From the NCBI RefSeq assembly GCF_000619845.1, contig NZ_JHUX01000007.1, forward strand, positions 1 to 32,000: a stretch of DNA of 32,000 nucleotides, read 5' to 3'. This document shows, piece by piece, positions 8,994 to 29,402 of this stretch; the first letter of the stretch is position 1; each line of letters opens with the position of its first letter. Below the pieces are notes generated by a model. That model did no database searches and was not told where the DNA came from. It worked only from the letters and a program-made list of their open reading frames with translations. The stretch comes from Alkanindiges illinoisensis DSM 15370 (GTDB lineage Bacteria; Pseudomonadota; Gammaproteobacteria; Pseudomonadales; Moraxellaceae). The position numbers and the translations under genes are program-made.

Positions 8994-10163
8994 GTGGTGA
9001 AGCAAAAGCAAAGTGTAATTTCGCTGTTGGTCTGTTTACCGCTATGGCTGGCCAGTCAGGCTGGGCATGCGGTTGAGGTGGCGATGGATGGGCCGGGCAA
9101 GCTGGAGATTGGCGGGGCAATTCGTGCCAAATACCAGTATCAGGATTTTGCCCAGACTGACAAGAGCAAGCTGGAGTTTGCAGACAGCAAGCTGGTGATT
9201 AATTATAGCTCGCCCACCTGGCTGGCTTATGCCGATTATCGCTGCTACCGTACGGAAGAACTCTGTGATTTGAGCATGCTGGTGGATGCATGGGTGGGTT
9301 ACCAGCTTGATCCACAGCAGCAATTAAGTATTGGCATGATGCCAGTTCCTTTTGGCCCGGGTCAGTATTGGGGCAGTACCTATTACGAAGGCACGGCTTA
9401 TAATCTGGGGCTGGAAGACACGCATAATCCGGGTATCAAGTACCAGTACAAGACCTCTGGCAACGAGTTGTCACTGGGTTTTTACCCGCAGGATGGCGGT
9501 AATTATATTGGTCAAAGCAATGATGCCAGCCGCTTTAGCGCTAATTTGGCCCAGGCTGATGACCTTGCCAACGGCACCAATATTGAAGAAAAAAACATGC
9601 TGATTGGCCGGGTTAGCCATCAGTTTAAGCAAAATGCGCAACTTAATCATACTGTAGGTGCATCGTACTGGCATTCAATACTGGAAAATCAGCAAAATGG
9701 CCAGTCCGGTGACCGTAATGCCTGGAATGTGTTTAGCAGTAGCAACTGGAAACAGTGGAATACCACCCTGGTAGCCGGGCAGCATCGTCTGGACAATCAG
9801 GACATGCAAATACCGGACATCAGTACATTTGGTGCCTTTGACTATAGCTACAATCTGGCCAATGATTATGATTATTACAGTGCCGAGCTGTCCTATAGCT
9901 TTGCCAGGCCGTATGGTAAGTTTAGCAATATCAAGCCCTATTTAAACTATAGCGTGATGGACAAGCAGCCAAAAGGTTTTGCCACGTCACAGCGGCTGAT
10001 TTCCGGGATTGGATTTAATTATGGGCCAATGGGTATTTTTGCTGAATATATGATTGCCAAGAATGACGCCATGGTGGGTGGTGATGCCAACAGCTATGCG
10101 CAGGGCAGCGCCGATGCCGACTGGAAAAAGCTGCTGTATATTTCGATTGGTTATTATTTTTAA
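8994..10163 (+). CDS. Putative outer-membrane beta-barrel porin
   Basis: Has a signal peptide (...LASQAGHA-VEV) and alternating aromatic/polar strands rich in Y/G/N. The C-terminus ISIGYYF has the terminal Phe typical of OMPs. The start is GTG at 8994 or 8997. The subfamily (OprO/P-like or other) is not resolved. Confidence 0.6.
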   Translation: MVKQKQSVISLLVCLPLWLASQAGHAVEVAMDGPGKLEIGGAIRAKYQYQDFAQTDKSKLEFADSKLVINYSSPTWLAYADYRCYRTEELCDLSMLVDAWVGYQLDPQQQLSIGMMPVPFGPGQYWGSTYYEGTAYNLGLEDTHNPGIKYQYKTSGNELSLGFYPQDGGNYIGQSNDASRFSANLAQADDLANGTNIEEKNMLIGRVSHQFKQNAQLNHTVGASYWHSILENQQNGQSGDRNAWNVFSSSNWKQWNTTLVAGQHRLDNQDMQIPDISTFGAFDYSYNLANDYDYYSAELSYSFARPYGKFSNIKPYLNYSVMDKQPKGFATSQRLISGIGFNYGPMGIFAEYMIAKNDAMVGGDANSYAQGSADADWKKLLYISIGYYF

Positions 10164-21698: not shown

Positions 21699-22406
21699 TC
21701 AGGTGTATTGATCGGTACGGGTGGAAAAACGGTAGCCTGTACCGCGCACGGTTTGCACAAAACGCTCTACGCCATACGGTTCCAGAATCTTGCGCAGGCG
21801 ACGGATATGCACATCAATGGTACGGTCTTCAATATACACATTGCCGCCCCACACCTGATCCAAGAGTTGCGCACGGGTATAGGCCCGTTCCGGATGGGTC
21901 ATAAAAAATGCCAGCAGCCGGTATTCGGTAGGGCCAATATCAATGATTTTGTCCTGATAGCTTACACGCTGACTGACCGGGTCCAGCAGTAAATCTTCGG
22001 CTTCAATCAATTTTTCATTGTTCAGTGCATTGCTGCGGCGCAATACGGCCTTGATGCGTGATACCAGCTCGCGGGTGGAAAACGGCTTGGTCATGTAATC
22101 ATCGGCACCGGCATCCAGACCCTGCACCTTGTGGTCTTCCTCGCCCCGTGCAGTCAGCATGATCACTGGAATTTCGGCCAGTGTTTCATCGCGCTTAAGG
22201 CGGCGGCACAAATCCACGCCACTGGTGCCGCCGGGCAGCATCCAGTCCAGCAGGATAATGCAGGGACGCTGGTCTACAATCATCTGGTGTGCCTGTTTGG
22301 CATCACCGGCCTGCTGACAGCTAAAGTCAGACATTTCCAGTGCGGTGTGAATCATCTCGCGGATTGGTGATTCATCATCCACGATTAAAATATAATCATC
22401 TTTCAT
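21699..22406 (-). CDS. phoB: Phosphate regulon response regulator (OmpR family)
   Basis: Receiver domain (ILIVDDE...DWMLPG...MLTA) plus a winged-helix domain (RTIDVHIRRLRK, VRGTGYRF). The start is set at the ATG at 22406 (MKDDYILIVDDE). The 21-codon 5' extension in the ORF track is unlikely. Confidence 0.93.
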   Translation of the reverse strand: MKDDYILIVDDESPIREMIHTALEMSDFSCQQAGDAKQAHQMIVDQRPCIILLDWMLPGGTSGVDLCRRLKRDETLAEIPVIMLTARGEEDHKVQGLDAGADDYMTKPFSTRELVSRIKAVLRRSNALNNEKLIEAEDLLLDPVSQRVSYQDKIIDIGPTEYRLLAFFMTHPERAYTRAQLLDQVWGGNVYIEDRTIDVHIRRLRKILEPYGVERFVQTVRGTGYRFSTRTDQYT

Positions 22407-22527
22407 TGTTATGCCCTTATTGGAACCACCTGTGTTCGATTCCGCTATGCTAATTTTGCTATGGATCATGCAGCGATTAATAAAGCCACCTGATGGGTTC
22501 AGGGTTTAGGCTTGTGATATGACAGTC

Positions 22528-22563
22528 CTATTACAAAGGCAAAAGATGACAGTTTTATTGCAA
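22528..22563 (-). promoter_or_regulatory. Pho-box promoter of phoBR
   Basis: The minus strand reads TTGCAAT-AAAA-CTGTCAT (22563-22546), then 12 nt, then TAATAG (22533-22528). This is the same layout as the E. coli phoB promoter, where the Pho box replaces the -35 element. Confidence 0.5.
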
Positions 22564-22648
22564 AAATCCCCATTTGCCTGAAATAAGCCATTTTTTAGCA
22601 AAATAAAGCACAGGTATACGCCAATCCCGCAGGGCAATATGGCTCGAA

Positions 22649-23467
22649 TTACTCCTGCGGTTCCTTTTCCATCCACTGCAATATGGACAAATAGGCCACT
22701 TGACAGGCTGCCAGTACCTGCGGCAGTGGCTCACGAAAGCCACCAATCACCCAGCGCATGGCAATGTGGGTGACAAAACCATTTAAGCCAGTAGACAATA
22801 GCGACAGGTCAGCCTTGGGCACTGGTTTCTTGGGAAACATCAGCATCATAAAAGCCTGAATCATGCGATCAAAGCGGGATACAGCTTCACTAATGGTGTT
22901 GCCATGCATTTCATGCACTAAAATCGCATCAATAAACAGGATACGGGCCATGCGTGGATCATCCTGCAGAGACTTGAACATGGCGGTTAAGCCTGCCTCA
23001 ATCATCAGGCGTGCTTCAGCCTTGCTTTGCATCACCGCTGCCAGAATATTTTGCTGCAGCTGTTCAATCAGGCGCAAATAAATGGTCTTAAATAACTCTT
23101 CACTGCGCTTGAATGACTCATAAAAGTAGCGTTCGGTCAGCTTGGCCTCATTGCAGACATCACGCACGGTCACCGAAAAAAAGCCTTGTGTACCATACAC
23201 CTGCAAGCCTGCTTCAATCAGCTTTTCACGCCGCTCATTCTGGCGCTGCTCCAGACTCAGGCCCTTAAAACTGCGGCGCTTGCTCACACTGCGGCTGCCG
23301 GGTTTTTTGCTGGCCGGCTTTGCTGGCGTGCCTTTATCTTGATCATCGGGCACAGTGTCTGGCTGATCCGTTGTATCGGATTGGGCTAGTGGCATGGGAG
23401 GCAGGGTGTTTTCCGTAACAGGCACAACAGGTGAAGTGCCTTGCGGTTTGGATTGATCATCAGTCAT
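22649..23467 (-). CDS. TetR/AcrR family transcriptional regulator with a long low-complexity N-terminal extension
   Basis: The HTH region is REKLIEAGLQVYGTQGFFSVTVRDVCNEAKLTERYFYESFKRSEELF. It is preceded by about 90 aa rich in P/T/D/K/S. The start is uncertain: 23467 is preferred, and 23395 and 23551 are alternatives. Confidence 0.8.
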   Translation of the reverse strand: MTDDQSKPQGTSPVVPVTENTLPPMPLAQSDTTDQPDTVPDDQDKGTPAKPASKKPGSRSVSKRRSFKGLSLEQRQNERREKLIEAGLQVYGTQGFFSVTVRDVCNEAKLTERYFYESFKRSEELFKTIYLRLIEQLQQNILAAVMQSKAEARLMIEAGLTAMFKSLQDDPRMARILFIDAILVHEMHGNTISEAVSRFDRMIQAFMMLMFPKKPVPKADLSLLSTGLNGFVTHIAMRWVIGGFREPLPQVLAACQVAYLSILQWMEKEPQE

Positions 23468-23679
23468 TGTCTTGGTGCTGGTCTCTGGCAACACGAGGTT
23501 GAATAGGCAATTCAGCATGCCATATTCTGCCCGGACTGTCATCTTTCTCAATAAATGCCAGATTTTGTGTGAAAGTACGCCGCTTAAAAAGCATTAAGAA
23601 AATACTTTTAGCAGAAAAATTAAGACAGCTATGCACATATAACGCTACAGTTAAACGTCTTTAGCCATGCATCCATATG

Positions 23680-23728
23680 CAAAAGCCGCAATTCCCTTGA
23701 AATACCCGAAGATCAGGTGGGAATTGCG
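23680..23728 (-). terminator. Terminator-like hairpin after the HDO gene
   Basis: Perfect 10 bp stem cgcaattccc/gggaattgcg (23687-23696 / 23719-23728) with a 22 nt loop. On the minus strand it is followed by GCTTTTG. Confidence 0.55.
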
Positions 23729-23776
23729 ACCAAGTCATTGACCCTGTCAGGCTTAAACTATTCAGGCTAAAACCAG

Positions 23777-25246
23777 TCAGGATTGAACCGGCAAATTGGC
23801 TTCCTGATTAAGCAGACCAACAAACTGCCGGGTGGCCCATAAGCCCACCACACTGGTGTGTAATGATGGCGCAAGGTATGGGATTAACAGGTAAAACGCC
23901 TGTTCAGAGTTATCGCGTTCTACCAGTTTTTGCGCGAGATCGGCCAGATCAGCATTTTTACTGTTGAGCGCCTGCTGAATAGTCAGGGTTTGTGATGGCG
24001 CAATCTCGACATGGCGATGCACTGCCCGATAACGGCGAATGCGTGGCGCCTCAGGGCTGTTAAGCCAGTCACCAGCAATCCAGTCATAGATAATTTGTTG
24101 TTCGGCATTGCTAAATACACCAAACATGACTGCTTTTTCACCATGAATCAGGTGCCAGAAGCGGCTGTTTTCCGGATTTTCATGGCGCTTGATCCAGCCT
24201 GCTTCTTCCAGTACGTCAATAAAGCGGCCCATGTCATCGCTGTTGGACAGCCATTCATTAATCGAATGGCCTGCCAGACGGCAATAATTACCATGGGCAA
24301 ACTGGCCAACTACTGCCTTATGTTTGAATACATCGGTAATGGCTTCTTTAAGATCAATTCTCTGAATGATTTGTTCAGTGCCCATGCCCAGATTATTAAG
24401 CATATAACCGCGTCGGATGCGCTGATAAAACTCGTCGCGTTCCTTAAATAACGGCAGCATGGCATACACGGCTTCAACCGCCTGCTGGGCATGGCCATTG
24501 TGCGCATTATCTACAGTCACATGCAGGCTAAAATAATAAGGGTCAATGCCCAGTTCATCCAGCTCATAAGTGGTAATCAGCAAATGCAGTGGCATTTGTT
24601 CATAACCCAGATTAAAGCCAATCACTTCCGGCATAAAATCCTGACCCAGCAAACCCAGCGCCAGCTGAATGCAGCCCTGATGATAATATTCATCCGGCAA
24701 ATTTGTAGCCAGTGGAATACCTTCTTTTGACATCAGTTGCTGATAGAGCAATACATGGTTCTGGGCGGATAGGCCATTGCCCAGCTCATCCAGATAGGTG
24801 CGAATTAACTGGTGGCAATTGATGTCATGCCAGGATTGCAAGGTGCCGTATAGCCATGAACCATCCACGCGCTTAGTGGGTTCAACATGCTGTAAAAACA
24901 GTAAGGCTTCGCTCTTGTTGGCAAAATAGCGACGTGGCGCGCCCTGCTTGCGGGATTTTAAATATTGCTGGTAGGCATAGCCGGTACGCTCGGTATGCTG
25001 CTGCATCCATTGTGGTAAATCTTCCGGGTTTTCCGGCAGGTCACAATGCTGTTTGGCCACCCAGCCCAGTTGCTGCTGCAAAAAGGCCTTGGCCTGACGA
25101 ATGGTGGACGCCCCGGGATAAGCCTGTAAAAAATTCTGATAAAACTGACGATAGGTTTGAGGTTGTGCTGCATCTGCCTGTGGCACGTTGCCGGGCAACT
25201 TCCCCAAAAAGAAATGATTCAAAATATTCTTTTGCAAAGCTAGCAT
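23777..25246 (-). CDS. Heme-oxygenase-like diiron oxidase/oxygenase (HDO; iron-containing redox enzyme family), long form
   Basis: 489 aa from the ATG at 25246 (RBS aggaac). The motifs are PTKRVDGSWLYG; DE154LGNGLSAQNH164 (E-x9-H); GYE216Q; and SLH242VTVD246NAH249 (H-x3-D-x2-H). Together these give a 3-His/3-carboxylate set spaced as in CADD/SznF-type HDOs. No cupin domain or other recognisable extra domain is present. Confidence 0.75.
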   Translation of the reverse strand: MLALQKNILNHFFLGKLPGNVPQADAAQPQTYRQFYQNFLQAYPGASTIRQAKAFLQQQLGWVAKQHCDLPENPEDLPQWMQQHTERTGYAYQQYLKSRKQGAPRRYFANKSEALLFLQHVEPTKRVDGSWLYGTLQSWHDINCHQLIRTYLDELGNGLSAQNHVLLYQQLMSKEGIPLATNLPDEYYHQGCIQLALGLLGQDFMPEVIGFNLGYEQMPLHLLITTYELDELGIDPYYFSLHVTVDNAHNGHAQQAVEAVYAMLPLFKERDEFYQRIRRGYMLNNLGMGTEQIIQRIDLKEAITDVFKHKAVVGQFAHGNYCRLAGHSINEWLSNSDDMGRFIDVLEEAGWIKRHENPENSRFWHLIHGEKAVMFGVFSNAEQQIIYDWIAGDWLNSPEAPRIRRYRAVHRHVEIAPSQTLTIQQALNSKNADLADLAQKLVERDNSEQAFYLLIPYLAPSLHTSVVGLWATRQFVGLLNQEANLPVQS

Positions 25247-25425
25247 CTTGTTGTTCCTACTACAATTCCTGAACATGATTACAGCTTTATTTTTAAAAAT
25301 AGGGTGTAAAGTTTTGTGGTACAGACTCAGCAATATCAGTGTTGCTGTTACGTTTAATACCCGGCAGTTTGATCGTGCTTAACGGTTTCCCTTTTAAAAA
25401 TCATGCCTTAACAGGAAAAAAGCAG

Positions 25426-26397
25426 ATGAACCAGATGCAGGCCTTACAACATAGTGTCACGGGACTACAACAGGATGTAAGGCAATTTTTACACTGGCTA
25501 CAAAGCCAGGATTATCAGTTCACCACCATTAGCCCCACCAGTCATACTGCCTATCTTAAACGCAGTGGCAAAACTCAGGCAGCCAATTTAACTGATGTTT
25601 TTGGCTGGTCGTTGCCATTTAAATCCAGCCTGCTGCCAGATTTTATTTTTAGATTATTGCTCAATAACCAATTGCTTACCCAAAAGCAAAATTTATGGTG
25701 CAGCCAGATTCGGGTGTCCAGCCTGAATAGTCATTTGCTGGTGCATTCCGCCTATCCCACGGCAGAGGAAAATGCGGTGTTTTTTGGGCCAGACACCTAT
25801 CGTTTTATTTATGCCCTGCAACATCACCTCAACCAGCATCGGCCTGCCATTACACGGGCTATTGAGCTATGTAGCGGAGCAGCACCTGCCACCATCAGTC
25901 TGGCCCATTATGCCCCCAAAGCCGAGATTTTTGCGGCTGATATTAACCCGCTGGCGCTGACCTATGGCGCGATTAACAGCAGTTTGAACGGCGCCGAACA
26001 GGTACAGGCCGTGCATAGCAATTTGTTGCAGCAGGTAGAGGGACAGTTTGACCTGATTACCGCCAATCCGCCTTATCTGGTAGATCGGCACCAGCGTTTG
26101 TACCGGCATGGCGGTGAGTTGCTGGGTGCTGAACTGGCGCTAAATATTGTGAAGCAATCTCTGCCACGGCTTAGCTTGCATGGCACCTTGCTGCTTTACA
26201 CTGGGGTAGTGATTGCGCATGGCAAGGATTTGTTGCAACAGGCTGTGCAGCAGCATCTGGCAGGGTTTGGCTCGAAATTTTCCTTTAATTATCAGCTCAT
26301 TGATCCCGATATTTTTGCTGACGAACTCAATGAACAGGATTATCCGGGTGCGGAACGAATTGCAGCCGTGGTTCTGACCATTAGCCGCAATACCTGA
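25426..26397 (+). CDS. Class I SAM-dependent N-methyltransferase with NPPY motif (HemK/PrmC/RsmC-like MTS fold)
   Basis: 323 aa from the ATG at 25426 (RBS agga). Motif I-like AIELCSGAAP, an acidic post-I residue in IFAADIN, and motif IV DLITANPPY. About 140 aa at the N-terminus form a domain of unknown function. It is transcribed divergently from the HDO gene. Confidence 0.8.
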   Translation: MNQMQALQHSVTGLQQDVRQFLHWLQSQDYQFTTISPTSHTAYLKRSGKTQAANLTDVFGWSLPFKSSLLPDFIFRLLLNNQLLTQKQNLWCSQIRVSSLNSHLLVHSAYPTAEENAVFFGPDTYRFIYALQHHLNQHRPAITRAIELCSGAAPATISLAHYAPKAEIFAADINPLALTYGAINSSLNGAEQVQAVHSNLLQQVEGQFDLITANPPYLVDRHQRLYRHGGELLGAELALNIVKQSLPRLSLHGTLLLYTGVVIAHGKDLLQQAVQQHLAGFGSKFSFNYQLIDPDIFADELNEQDYPGAERIAAVVLTISRNT

Positions 26398-26559
26398 GCA
26401 GTCTAAATTGCCTGAAAAACAGTCTAAAAACCAGCCTGCTTTATAGCAAGCCTTGTCCATGCAGGGCTGACTGCTAAAACTGATGGCGGCATGACTGGTT
26501 TTGAAAATTTCTGCCATCGACAGCCCGCAGTAATCTATTACCCTTGCAGATCATTGGCG

Positions 26560-26599
26560 CATAATATTTATTGACAATAGGTATTGTCAAAATTATAGT
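26560..26599 (+). promoter_or_regulatory. Near-consensus sigma70 promoter overlapped by operator O2 (TTGACAATA-gg-TATTGTCAA)
   Basis: -35 TTGACA (26571-26576), a 17 bp spacer, and -10 TATAGT (26594-26599). A perfect 9-2-9 palindrome at 26571-26590 covers the -35 and the spacer. A degenerate overlapping copy, CATAATA-tt-TATTGAC, lies at 26560-26575. Confidence 0.65.
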
Positions 26600-26659
26600 G
26601 CTTAACCATGTAGCAGGTTTTCTTCGACACCGTGTACGGTTTAACCAGGAAAGTTCAGT

Positions 26660-27502
26660 ATGAAAGATTTTAACAATAAAGTGGCGGCCATTACTGGCGC
26701 AGGTTCAGGGATTGGTCAGCAGCTTGCCATATTACTGGCCAAACAGGGCGCACACCTGTCCTTGAGCGATATCAACGAGCAGGGACTGGCTAAAACCGTT
26801 GAGCTGGTCAGCAGCTACCCGGTTAAAGTCACCACGACCAAGCTGGACGTATCCAGCCGTGACGGGATCAAGGCCTGGGCTGAACAAACTGTACAGGATC
26901 ATGGCAAGGTAAACCTGATTTTCAACAATGCTGGCGTTGCGCTAGGCAGTACTGTTGAAGGCATGAGCTATGAAGAACTGGAATGGCTGATGGGCATTAA
27001 CTTCTGGGGTGTGGTATATGGCACCAAAGAATTTTTACCCCATCTGAAAGCCAGCGGTGACGGCCACATCATTAATATTTCCAGCCTGTTTGGCCTGACT
27101 GCCCAGCCAACCCAAAGTGCTTACAATGCCAGTAAATTTGCCGTACGTGGCTTTACCGAAGCCTTGCGTCAGGAGCTGGACATTCAAAACAATGGCGTGA
27201 GTGCTACCTGTGTGCATCCGGGCGGTATCCGTACCAACATTGCCAATGCAGCACGCATGAACGACAGTATTCGTAGCCTGGGCATGAACCCGGAAAAAGC
27301 TGGTAAGCAGTTTAACAAGCTGCTGCGTACGCCACCTGAAGAAGCCGCGCGCCAGATTCTGGAAGCAGTTCGCAATAATGACCGACGCCTGCTGATTGGT
27401 AATGATGCCAAAGTACTGGAACTGATCCAGCGTATCATGCCAGCTGGCTATCAAAAGGTGGTGGCATTTGGGACTAAGCTGCAACAGCGTGGTGCCAAGT
27501 AA
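26660..27502 (+). CDS. Short-chain dehydrogenase/reductase (classical SDR) oxidoreductase
   Basis: 280 aa. Cofactor motif TGAGSGIG, NNAG, and catalytic S...YNASK. The RBS is aggaaag. Confidence 0.9.
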   Translation: MKDFNNKVAAITGAGSGIGQQLAILLAKQGAHLSLSDINEQGLAKTVELVSSYPVKVTTTKLDVSSRDGIKAWAEQTVQDHGKVNLIFNNAGVALGSTVEGMSYEELEWLMGINFWGVVYGTKEFLPHLKASGDGHIINISSLFGLTAQPTQSAYNASKFAVRGFTEALRQELDIQNNGVSATCVHPGGIRTNIANAARMNDSIRSLGMNPEKAGKQFNKLLRTPPEEAARQILEAVRNNDRRLLIGNDAKVLELIQRIMPAGYQKVVAFGTKLQQRGAK

Positions 27503-27586
27503 GGCTTGAATCAGCAAAATTTGAATCAGCTTTGAAATACAGCTAACACCGGTTGAAGCAGGGCTAAACCAGTGTAAATAAAAAAA

Positions 27587-27616
27587 GGCAGCATAGCTTA
27601 GTATGCTGCCTTTTTA
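27587..27616 (+). terminator. Rho-independent terminator after the SDR gene
   Basis: Stem ggcagcata/tatgctgcc followed by T5. An upstream A-run makes it potentially bidirectional. Confidence 0.85.
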
Positions 27617-28044
27617 CATTAACATTCATGCGCGGTGACAGCCATAGAAGCCCTGTTAAGCCAGTCTTCTAAGACCAAATGCCAATGTTGAGCAGACAGT
27701 GTTGTGGTTAAAATCATATTTTTAACAGGCATTAGGATAAAAACTGCTCATAACTGTTAAGTTTTACTCAAACAGTTCAAAAAAAATTAAATTAAAGTAA
27801 AAAATTAAGCAATTGAGCATTTAAACTATTGTCATAGGTGATTTATAAGTTGAATATATATTCGCTTTTTGCTTGATATACTTCTTCAAGTAACAAAGGG
27901 GAAAAGATCAATTAAACTGATCTGATTTCAAATGCTTGAAAATTAGGTGGGTTGAGGCGTTAAACATTATGACAAGTGTCGATGATAAAAGTAGATGCTT
28001 GCATATCTGTCAATCAAGCCAGTTAATCAAATAGCGAGTCATTC

Positions 28045-28076
28045 AAATCAGTGGTGACTTAAAGCACTACTGATTT
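28045..28076. promoter_or_regulatory. Inverted repeat just upstream of the second TetR gene (candidate auto-operator or 5'-UTR hairpin)
   Basis: aaatcagtggtg-N8-cactactgattt: 12 nt arms with one mismatch (a G-U pair in RNA). It ends 9 nt before the RBS agggaggg. Confidence 0.35.
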
Positions 28077-28100
28077 AAATAACTAGGGAGGGTTATTGTT

Positions 28101-28694
28101 ATGCGCAAGCAGCCACAGCAAAAACGGGCCAGAGAACTGGTCAACCGGATTTTAAAAGCCACTGAAAACTATATTGGCTTGCATGGTCTTGAAGACTTAA
28201 CGACTCCCAAGATTTCTGAACATTCTGGTATTAGCGTTGGGTCTATTTACCAGTATTTCAGCAATAAGCAGGAAATTATTGAAAGCCTGCTGGAATATAA
28301 AAGCCACGAGCTTGGACAGGATTTTAAGCAGTTTGTGCTGTGTCACAGTTTTCCGGATTTAAAAAGCATGATTACGGCCAGTATTGATTTTGGCTTCGAA
28401 CAGCTCCAGGCCAACAATGGCTATTACCTTGAAATTCTGCGTCACTGGCACAGCTTAAATGGCCAAAAATCCATACAAATTCTGCAAACGCATTTTTCAG
28501 AACTATGCATGTACATTCTAGGCAAGTTTTATACCGGACAACATCCGGAACGTCTGGAGCTTAAGGTATTTATTGTGGTCAACAGCACAATCCAAACCAT
28601 CATGAGCTATTGCTCGCAGGGCATCAATAAATATAGTGAACAGGACATCAAGCAGGAGCTGACCGAGATGATTACAGGCTATCTGGAAAAATAA
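28101..28694 (+). CDS. TetR/AcrR family transcriptional regulator
   Basis: 197 aa. The N-terminal HTH is TTPKISEHSGISVGSIYQYFSNKQEI. It has a strong RBS and is visibly AT-richer than the window average. Confidence 0.85.
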   Translation: MRKQPQQKRARELVNRILKATENYIGLHGLEDLTTPKISEHSGISVGSIYQYFSNKQEIIESLLEYKSHELGQDFKQFVLCHSFPDLKSMITASIDFGFEQLQANNGYYLEILRHWHSLNGQKSIQILQTHFSELCMYILGKFYTGQHPERLELKVFIVVNSTIQTIMSYCSQGINKYSEQDIKQELTEMITGYLEK

Positions 28695-28724
28695 AAAAGC
28701 TGACTAAAACACAGCCAGCTTTTT
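28694..28724. terminator. Probable bidirectional terminator between the convergent TetR and SPOR genes
   Basis: aaaaagctg...cagcttttt stem with A/T-run flanks on both sides. Confidence 0.55.
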
Positions 28725-28748
28725 AAATAGGGTATTACGTGGTTTGAT

Positions 28749-29402
28749 TTACTTGCGTTGTTCCACCACCAGTGAATCAATCCCGCTGTTTTGCAGCAGG
28801 CTTTGGGCATTCAAGGCTTCGGCGCGGTTGGCAAATGGCCCGGAAACTACCCGGAACCAGGTTGAACCATCGGCCAGCGTGCTTTGACGCACATCGGCAG
28901 GCAAGCCTACCAGCAGGATTTCAGCGCGTCGTGCGTCGGCATCATCCGGATTCTGGTAGCTGTTCACTTGCAGAATATACTGTGGCAGGGTGGCCGTGGT
29001 GATTTCTACCGGGTCACTGTGATCCGCATTAATATCATCTGGGACAGTGGGCTCAACAGCAGGGGTACTGGGCGTTGCAACAATGATATTGTCCGCCGCG
29101 TTGTTGGGATTGGCAGGTACGGCTTCATCCGGCACAGGCGTGACTTGTTGCTTGGGCAGCAAATCGTAGAACTGGTAGTCCTTGTTGGTTTCATCCGCAC
29201 TGGATTCGGTCGATGTTGTCCGGGTCGCGTCAATGGGCCGATTGGCAGGACGCCAGGGTTGCCATAAATACAGCAGCACCATAATAAACAGCCCCAACAG
29301 CATGCCAAAAATCATCCATAACCATCCGGGGATCAATTTCTGGTTGCTGGGTTCTTTAACCGGTGGACGCTGGGTCGCGCCCCGTGGAGCTTTGCCAAAC
29401 AC
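28749..29402 (-). CDS. SPOR-domain cell-division protein (FtsN/DedD-like)
   Basis: Short cytoplasmic N-terminus, one TM helix (WLWMIFGMLLGLFIMVLLYLW), a Pro/Thr-rich linker, and a C-terminal SPOR domain (YILQVNSY...WFRVVSGPF..R.EA). The start is GTG with RBS gaggaa. It sits downstream of argS, as I recall for Pseudomonas. Confidence 0.85.
   Translation of the reverse strand: MFGKAPRGATQRPPVKEPSNQKLIPGWLWMIFGMLLGLFIMVLLYLWQPWRPANRPIDATRTTSTESSADETNKDYQFYDLLPKQQVTPVPDEAVPANPNNAADNIIVATPSTPAVEPTVPDDINADHSDPVEITTATLPQYILQVNSYQNPDDADARRAEILLVGLPADVRQSTLADGSTWFRVVSGPFANRAEALNAQSLLQNSGIDSLVVEQRK

Follow-up and report, generated by a model that had tools for sequence, protein, structure and literature searches.

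A DtpC-family oxidase and a predicted N-methyltransferase form a conserved two-gene unit in Alkanindiges illinoisensis and other bacteria

A stretch of 32,000 nucleotides from Alkanindiges illinoisensis DSM 15370 (NCBI RefSeq assembly GCF_000619845.1, contig NZ_JHUX01000007.1, positions 1 to 32,000; hereafter the window) carries, head to head, the genes of a haem-oxygenase-like diiron enzyme (HDO) and of a methyltransferase (MT). The HDO is a member of the family of DtpC, a published factor of Acinetobacter baumannii for protection against desiccation and oxidative stress, and together with the MT it forms a self-contained two-gene unit that extends from Pseudomonadota into Abditibacteriota. 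The pairing of a DtpC-type HDO with an N-methyltransferase of the AerE/GenN type is unreported, and suggests that the two enzymes act in one pathway. The name of DtpC, its phenotype and its dependence on metal-site residues are already known; new are the pairing with the MT, the spread to Abditibacteriota, the absence of a third conserved gene and, as judged from alignments and predicted structures, an MT fold closest to those of AerE and GenN and a resemblance of the HDO to N-oxygenases that includes the candidate ligand D128. The HDO open reading frame (ORF) occupies 23777..25333 on the minus strand, of which 23777..25246, from a homologue-supported ATG at 25246, encodes 489 residues, the start being backed by alignment with 16 homologues and by a conserved AGGA block 8 nt upstream; the MT ORF occupies 25339..26397 on the plus strand and, from a homologue-supported ATG at 25426, encodes 323 residues (25426..26397). 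The divergent intergenic region between them (25247..25425) measures 179 bp. An earlier reading of this DNA, made from the sequence only, had described exactly this arrangement, with an NPPY motif in the MT, and all of it is present.

First, the oxidase can be placed by its relationship to DtpC (ABUW_2437 / A1S_1385), desiccation tolerance protein C of A. baumannii, which is HDO-like, uncharacterised and transcribed together with katE (PMC13232832, PLoS One, June 2026). Either dtpC or katE alone restores desiccation survival to the double mutant. In dried A. baumannii cells DtpC holds down H2O2 accumulation as well as iron-dependent killing and mutagenesis; it gives no protection from acute H2O2, and loses its protective effect upon any one of the substitutions E143A, H153A and H232A, convergence of the metal residues being reported as well (PMC13232832). 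The authors find its closest relatives in Acinetobacter, Stutzerimonas and Pseudomonas and hold that a mechanism cannot yet be proposed (PMC13232832), and an earlier study had found ABUW_2437 to be CsrA-controlled (bioRxiv 10.1101/2021.08.11.455981); neither paper mentions the MT. The A. baumannii locus in our collection (L090) encodes a 468-residue PF14518 protein with E143, H153 and H232 at the published positions, followed after a 54-bp gap by KatE, which matches the published dtpC-katE layout. The window HDO aligns with A. baumannii DtpC at 38.6% identity over 458 aa (E=4e-104) and with the Acinetobacter vivianii protein at 39% over ~440-460 aa, and its E154, H164 and H242 align to DtpC E143, H153 and H232. 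Given this full-length homology and the alignment of the three mutated residues, the window HDO is a DtpC family member, which overturns the earlier statement that no characterised system with this architecture was known.

Second, profile searches and structure prediction agree on the enzyme class. PF14518 (Haem_oxygenas_2) matches HDO residues 117-281 (E=2e-24, 86.8 bits against a cut-off of 28.9) and PF05175 matches the MT (E=3.3e-11, 43.5 bits against 23); with both above cut-off, a chance motif match can be set aside. A first search returned 2033 HDO homologues, and a 50%-clustered library holds 411 representatives at E<=1e-30. An AlphaFold2 (AF2) model of the HDO, built on 17 homologues (mean pLDDT 83, pTM 0.84), finds as its best solved matches in Foldseek only HDOs, namely RohS, HrmI, SznF, CADD, FlcD, PolF, BesC and UndA, at probabilities up to 1.0 (1.0 for the first five) and TMt values of 0.54-0.64; the HDO assignment of the sequence-only reading thus stands. 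The HDO core spans residues ~30-290 and is followed by a helical, family-specific and strongly conserved C-terminal domain (residues ~290-489), and no Pfam cupin hit was obtained, in keeping with the earlier judgement that this is not an SznF orthologue. Neither the single HDO sequence nor a profile built from it found a significant match among Protein Data Bank (PDB) chains, the nearest being a 45-residue stretch around E154-H164 that resembles RohS at E=0.17; it is for this reason that the residue mapping to solved HDOs relies on spacing and published numbering.

That mapping yields a metal site of a slightly different design from the one first proposed. The predicted ligands are E154 (codon 24785-24787), H164 (24755-24757), E216 (24599-24601), H242 (24521-24523), D246 (24509-24511) and H252 (24491-24493), all on the minus strand, and all six are invariant in an alignment of 121 relatives, as are D128, N163, E207, H221, E228, N247 and H318. 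The six-ligand pattern of the sequence-only reading ended instead at H249 (24500-24502, minus strand); every residue that it named is in the sequence and the first five are those just listed, but H249 is not conserved, the position being occupied by D in 73 relatives, S in 24, H in 11, A in 7 and G in 6. As position 249 varies and H252 does not, the core-helix-3 motif of the family is HxxxDNxxxGH (H-x3-D-x5-H) and not the canonical HxxxDxxH, which is critical in RohS (PMC13133933). In the AF2 model two helices are separated at residues 246-251, an interruption reminiscent of the unwound core helix 3 described for the apo state of SznF and RohS. Both SznF (E189) and RohS (E98) have a seventh ligand on a β-turn that breaks up auxiliary helix 2. 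It precedes the first core glutamate (E215 and E124, respectively) by exactly 26 residues, and this extra carboxylate has been proposed as a marker of heteroatom oxygenases (PMC7848743). The corresponding candidate in the window HDO is D128 (codon 24863-24865, minus strand), which sits in the VDG turn of the segment PTKRVDGSWL (residues 123-132), 26 residues before E154 and at an AF2 helix break (126-129), a correspondence of spacing and secondary structure only. From the E-x9-H spacing shared with RohS and SznF, the position of D128 and the nearest structures (RohS, HrmI and SznF), we infer that the HDO is N-oxygenase-like.

Two side observations concern the HDO family. Within the C-terminal domain, the invariant segment LEEAGWIKRHENPENSRFW (HDO residues 335-364, window 24155-24244) weakly resembles a MarR recognition helix and wing (Pfam MarR E=0.0065, 16.8 bits against a cut-off of 24.6; PDB MarR chains E=0.2-1.3), and may represent a vestigial winged-helix element. 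Dozens of relatives of 640-1030 aa (P0401, P0426, P0432, P0440, P0447, P0465 and others) combine a complete DtpC-type core, with its motifs PTKxVDGAWL, EELGxG..NH, GFNxGYE and HxTxDNxxxGH, with long unannotated tails, some of them with apparent transmembrane segments; these proteins look eukaryotic. Among 150 representatives no HDO-MT fusion was found, the long relatives consisting of the HDO domain and tails, one with a trypsin domain.

Third, the partner enzyme is, to judge from its NPPY motif and from structural relatives that methylate nitrogen, an N-directed class I S-adenosylmethionine-dependent methyltransferase of the AerE/GenN/HemK structural type; its action on nitrogen had been supposed in the sequence-only reading. 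NPPY occupies MT residues 214-217 (nt 26065-26076, plus strand); N214, P215 and P216 never vary in the MT family alignment, Y217 is conserved to at least 90%, and further invariant motifs are FFGPDxYRF and YRHGG. The best sequence match in the PDB is AerE (7RC2-7RC6, E=4e-8), the iterative asparagine side-chain N-methyltransferase of aeronamide (PMC9060474). With the AF2 model of the MT (pLDDT 87), Foldseek again returns AerE (E=1e-15, TMq 0.64-0.71 over the whole chain), then GenN (0.60) and PrmC (0.50), with N6AMT1/KMT9 and the carbamoyl N-methyltransferase Asc-Orf2 further down the list. The nearest solved relatives thus all methylate nitrogen, be it an asparagine amide (AerE), an amine (GenN, the gentamicin 3''-N-methyltransferase), a glutamine amide (PrmC, which acts on N5 in release factors) or a carbamoyl nitrogen (Asc-Orf2). 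Identity with a known rRNA or protein methyltransferase, which would have undone the earlier reading, was considered and rejected: the NCBIfam scores fall far under the equivalog cut-offs for PrmC/HemK (62.4 against 199.1), PrmB (49.6 against 229.7), RsmC (23.8 against 295) and PrmA (16.9 against 183). PADLOC returned no match for the HDO and matched the MT to mad2 only over core residues 140-233 (E=1.7e-11), so no defence-system assignment follows.

Fourth, the two genes stay together across genomes. Among the 80 best loci with a gene for an HDO relative, tblastn located the MT within 6 kb in 69, which bears out the co-occurrence on which the sequence-only reading depended; look-ups from the MT side (A. 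vivianii, Pseudomonas putida and Methylobacillus gramineus) met a PF14518 neighbour in all three cases, and three further HDO contexts also hold the pair. ORF calls in 70 sequences, namely these 69 loci and the window, place the MT downstream of the HDO on the same strand in 61, with a 4-nt overlap in 11 and a gap of 2-55 nt in most others; the remainder comprise four convergent and three divergent pairs and two loci with the MT 1.2-1.4 kb upstream. In P. putida the HDO and MT gene calls share a boundary base. The pair also occurs in Abditibacteriota, whose HDO (52-55%) and MT (53-63%) are closer to the Stutzerimonas proteins than those of the window are (~42-44%), which points to joint transfer of the two genes between phyla. 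Clustering of the ORFs around the pair revealed no third conserved ORF of at least 70 aa beyond within-genus synteny, no small ORF (25-95 aa) is conserved across genera within 1.5 kb, and neither a precursor peptide, a transporter nor a third enzyme is conserved nearby, the intergenic regions of the window likewise lacking a plausible precursor peptide. A Zn-alcohol dehydrogenase was tried as a partner and rejected: it lies near the pair in 34 loci but is related only distantly to FdhA (185 bits against a cut-off of 637) and restricted to Pseudomonas and Stutzerimonas and to single loci of Abditibacterium and of an unclassified Pseudomonadota metagenome-assembled genome.

What might such a pair do? 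We infer, tentatively and somewhat short of an even chance, that HDO and MT act on one substrate as an N-methylation plus N-oxygenation module for stress protection. The MT would methylate an amine, amide or guanidine nitrogen in a metabolite that is abundant in the cell, and the O2-activating dimetal centre of the HDO would N-oxygenate the methylated or a neighbouring nitrogen, possibly in the reverse order. The product, an N-methyl hydroxylamine, hydroxamate or nitrone-type compound, would be kept in the cell and lower oxidant- or iron-mediated damage during starvation or drying; radical quenching or iron binding by such a compound would fit the effects of DtpC. Since the HDO is N-oxygenase-like, the relatives of the MT are N-directed and no other gene seems to be needed, this combination is the simplest model. 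A bolder extension, possible but doubtful, is that the pair constitutes a widespread, hitherto unrecognised two-enzyme pathway which converts a common nitrogenous metabolite (e.g., one derived from arginine, lysine or an amide) into an N-methyl-N-oxygenated intracellular antioxidant or iron-taming protectant and thereby explains DtpC-dependent desiccation tolerance.

Several observations weigh against this methylation and oxygenation model. The chemistry is conjectural for every member of the DtpC family. In Foldseek the solved HDOs are matched with modest E-values (4.6e-3 and weaker), over the N-terminal ~300 residues only; the canonical third-helix histidine (249) is not conserved, and H252 and D128 are predicted to reach the metal site from conservation and spacing. 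Eleven of the 80 loci have no MT within 6 kb, A. baumannii has none within 13 kb of dtpC, and Acinetobacter radioresistens (L091) and Acinetobacter chinensis (L092) have none nearby, so that DtpC may work without an MT, or these genomes may encode it at some other site. Finally, the 32-kb window holds no catalase or other stress gene beside the pair.

The Acinetobacter loci lead directly to the leading alternative, that the HDO protects alone, either by consuming O2, H2O2 or superoxide at its dimetal site or by sequestering iron, with the MT outside its catalytic pathway and serving perhaps a maturation, regulatory or unrelated co-regulated function. This we regard as unlikely. The double mutant of A. 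baumannii, where no MT adjoins dtpC, is complemented by dtpC by itself, a neighbouring MT is absent in three of the four Acinetobacter species examined, and the authors of the DtpC study themselves name iron sequestration and scavenging of reactive oxygen species as possibilities (PMC13232832). Yet the complementation strains carry the rest of their genome, which leaves room for an MT located elsewhere; DtpC gives no protection against acute H2O2, and two iron atoms per protein make a poor iron sink. The two genes remain neighbours through four arrangements, overlap by 4 nt in some loci and were apparently co-transferred across phyla, all of which would be difficult to account for if they had no function in common.

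A second alternative keeps the two enzymes together and moves their action to a macromolecule: the MT would methylate a glutamine, asparagine or lysine of a protein or peptide, possibly of the HDO itself, and the HDO would hydroxylate or oxidatively remove the methyl mark or modify the same target. It draws on the closest solved MT relatives AerE and PrmC, which methylate side-chain amides of peptides and proteins, on the conserved ~200-aa extra domain of the HDO, whose weak MarR/winged-helix-like motif at 335-364 could bind a macromolecule, and on the limitation of desiccation-induced mutagenesis by DtpC. We nevertheless consider it improbable: the MarR-like match is under the Pfam cut-off, no conserved precursor-peptide or target gene stands beside the pair, GenN, whose fold matches equally well, has a small-molecule substrate, and characterised HDOs act on small molecules as well, save for the self-sacrificing CADD. 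A cassette like SznE/SznF for a secreted bioactive N-N or N-O compound (toxin, antibiotic or siderophore) would share the logic of an N-methyltransferase combined with an N-oxygenase-like HDO, and SznF and RohS are among the closest structural matches, but it is very improbable given that the HDO lacks a cupin domain, that no non-ribosomal peptide synthetase, polyketide synthase, transporter or tailoring gene is conserved nearby, that the contexts are core chromosomal, housekeeping or stress-related in hundreds of species, and that the phenotype of the homologue DtpC is intracellular protection. The streptozotocin parallel drawn in the sequence-only reading accordingly holds only as a chemical analogy and does not extend to the genomic context, which is one of housekeeping and stress genes and not a natural-product cluster.

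The neighbourhoods of the pair in other lineages lend this methylation and oxygenation model some colour. KatE adjacency is seen only in Acinetobacter loci, and the window shows no operon with katE; around the pair or the HDO, Acinetobacter also carries CinA, KGG-repeat and DUF421 genes, Methylobacillus carries KGG, DUF4142 and DUF421 genes, and P. putida a Dyp peroxidase, a YbdK-type carboxylate-amine ligase and Ku. In P. putida (L082 8981-9829) the HDO-MT operon continues with the YbdK ligase, a PNP_UDP_1 protein, a Cys-rich protein and Ku, and in Pseudomonas fluorescens C2 (L037 7392-10007) LigD directly follows the HDO with no MT nearby; these LigD and Ku neighbours link the HDO-MT module to genes of non-homologous end joining and dormancy. 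The YbdK ligase directly follows the MT in five loci. Five Oxalobacteraceae loci without a nearby MT have the HDO directly upstream of cyanophycin genes on the same strand, the next gene being cyanophycin synthetase in three (L040, L049, L064) and an S51 cyanophycinase in two (L067 7315-8181, L080 7306-8172; gap ~7 nt). This adjacency may hint at a substrate related to arginine or aspartate, or may reflect a shared stationary-phase regulon; together, the YbdK and cyanophycin (Arg/Asp) neighbours are weak hints of an amino-acid-like substrate. In Stutzerimonas (L005 5591-5806, ~20 loci) a highly charged acidic ORF of ~70-100 aa, hydrophilin-like and without a family match, lies divergent from the HDO; it is reminiscent of the disordered desiccation proteins that A. 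baumannii encodes near dtpC. Overall, the neighbours are stationary-phase, dormancy and oxidative or DNA-damage survival genes, not natural-product clusters, a thematic and patchy pattern that is supporting evidence only.

Acinetobacter itself shows how the locus varies within one genus. Among the four loci L081, L090, L091 and L092, only that of A. vivianii (L081) keeps the MT beside dtpC-katE, between a short-chain dehydrogenase (SDR) and katE. In A. baumannii (L090) the SDR directly follows katE and there is no MT remnant, and in A. radioresistens (L091) an amine oxidase and a CMAS-like MT follow the HDO.

Within the window, downstream of the HDO stop, a stem-loop followed by CUUUUG (~23688-23728, minus strand, by RNA folding) is likely the intrinsic terminator of the gene, as proposed earlier; the 121-nt region 23660-23780(-) folds at -42.6 kcal/mol (z=-3.9 against shuffles), and a simple terminator scan missed the hairpin because its loop is longer than 8 nt. 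Ahead of the HDO start, two blocks (~25303-25319 and 25247-25285) are conserved in alignment with the spacers of L001, L002 and L086 and contain a putative -10-like element, TGTAAT preceded by C, and the AGGA ribosome-binding site; a consensus promoter scan found no strong sigma-70 site in 25247-25425. The sequence-only reading had suggested that a TetR-family regulator and an SDR might be accessory genes, but neither belongs to the conserved unit. The TetR gene (22649..23551, minus strand; PF00440 E=1.1e-5) adjoins the HDO only in the five closest loci (window, L001, L002, L086, L087) and is possibly a local regulator of lineage-specific occurrence. Its product has a long low-complexity N-terminal extension of ~70-100 aa, rich in Pro, Asp, Thr and Lys, and the long form (~297-300 aa) is also called in the metagenomic locus L086. 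The SDR, a classical one downstream of the MT (26660..27502, plus strand; PF00106 E=8e-49), recurs in the equivalent position only in the two closest loci, L001 and L002, and was rejected as a third member of the module, its 33% identity to the A. vivianii SDR beside the MT being generic and comparable to the 31-33% with SDRs of other loci.

Further observations on the window are of a more incidental kind. The intergenic region between MT and SDR (26398-26659) contains overlapping near-consensus sigma-70-like sites on both strands (11/12 matches) and a terminator-like hairpin. An Rfam scan of 22000-29000 produced sub-threshold matches only, among them a 'Thr_leader' match just 3′ of the SDR (27578-27648; 31.5 bits against 55), which is probably only a terminator hairpin. 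The remaining genes (IleRS, RibF, a MATE pump, two DUF445 genes, PhoR/PhoB, a SPOR protein and ArgRS) are those of ordinary chromosome, and no biosynthetic cluster is present in the 32 kb. Elsewhere, a TauD-like Fe/2OG dioxygenase gene (520-1584) overlaps by 4 nt the gene of a 448-aa condensation/PapA-type acyltransferase (1581-2927) on the minus strand (520-2927), and a 389-aa ORF (8994-10163, plus strand) has no Pfam family at E<=1e-5. The nearest genome in the collection is Alkanindiges hydrocarboniclasticus H1, with amino-acid identities of 95% for the HDO and 89% for the MT.

These findings matter chiefly for what they offer to the study of DtpC, which is among the strongest known determinants of dry-surface survival in A. 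baumannii. Most members of its family are genetically locked to an AerE/GenN-type N-methyltransferase, which makes the chemistry of DtpC directly testable. The HDO superfamily gains a large clade, set apart by its extra domain and by a third-helix ligand motif that is shifted; to judge from DtpC, the role of this clade is physiological stress protection rather than secondary metabolism. Were the protectant pathway real, it would supply the missing biochemical explanation of DtpC-dependent tolerance and a new class of bacterial stress metabolite; were HDO and MT not functionally linked, the finding would amount to one more DtpC homologue.

Finally, it is instructive to set the pair against the systems that it resembles. 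With SznF, RohS and HrmI, the HDO has in common the haem-oxygenase-like dimetal fold, as predicted by AF2, and the E-x9-H of core helix 1; an acidic residue 26 positions upstream, at a predicted helix break, is a candidate counterpart of their seventh ligand, and in the Szn pathway, too, an N-methyltransferase (SznE) works with an HDO. It differs from them in lacking a cupin domain, in carrying HxxxDx5H in place of HxxxDxxH and an Asp rather than a Glu as the candidate seventh ligand, and in its extra ~200-aa C-terminal domain; it has no biosynthetic cluster, and hmmsearch relates it to RohS at E=0.17 only. The MT resembles PrmC/HemK in the NPPY motif, in the methyltransferase core and in the top NCBIfam match, but has an unlike N-terminal domain (TMq 0.50). 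To AerE and GenN it is bound by the NPP[YF] motif, by a (V/F)F(I/F)GPD(S/T)Y segment before motif I and by a fold match that includes the N-terminal subdomain, whereas identity is only 16-18%, no proteusin precursor or aminoglycoside genes lie nearby, and the YRHGG loop after NPPY is absent from AerE. With respect to DtpC itself, the A. baumannii gene shares a transcript with katE and no MT adjoins it, whereas the window gene is without a catalase and divergently paired with an MT, and the window HDO is closer to the Pseudomonas and Stutzerimonas proteins (45-50%) than to the Acinetobacter clade; the two proteins nonetheless have a similar length, the same two-domain architecture and all of the invariant metal-site residues in common.

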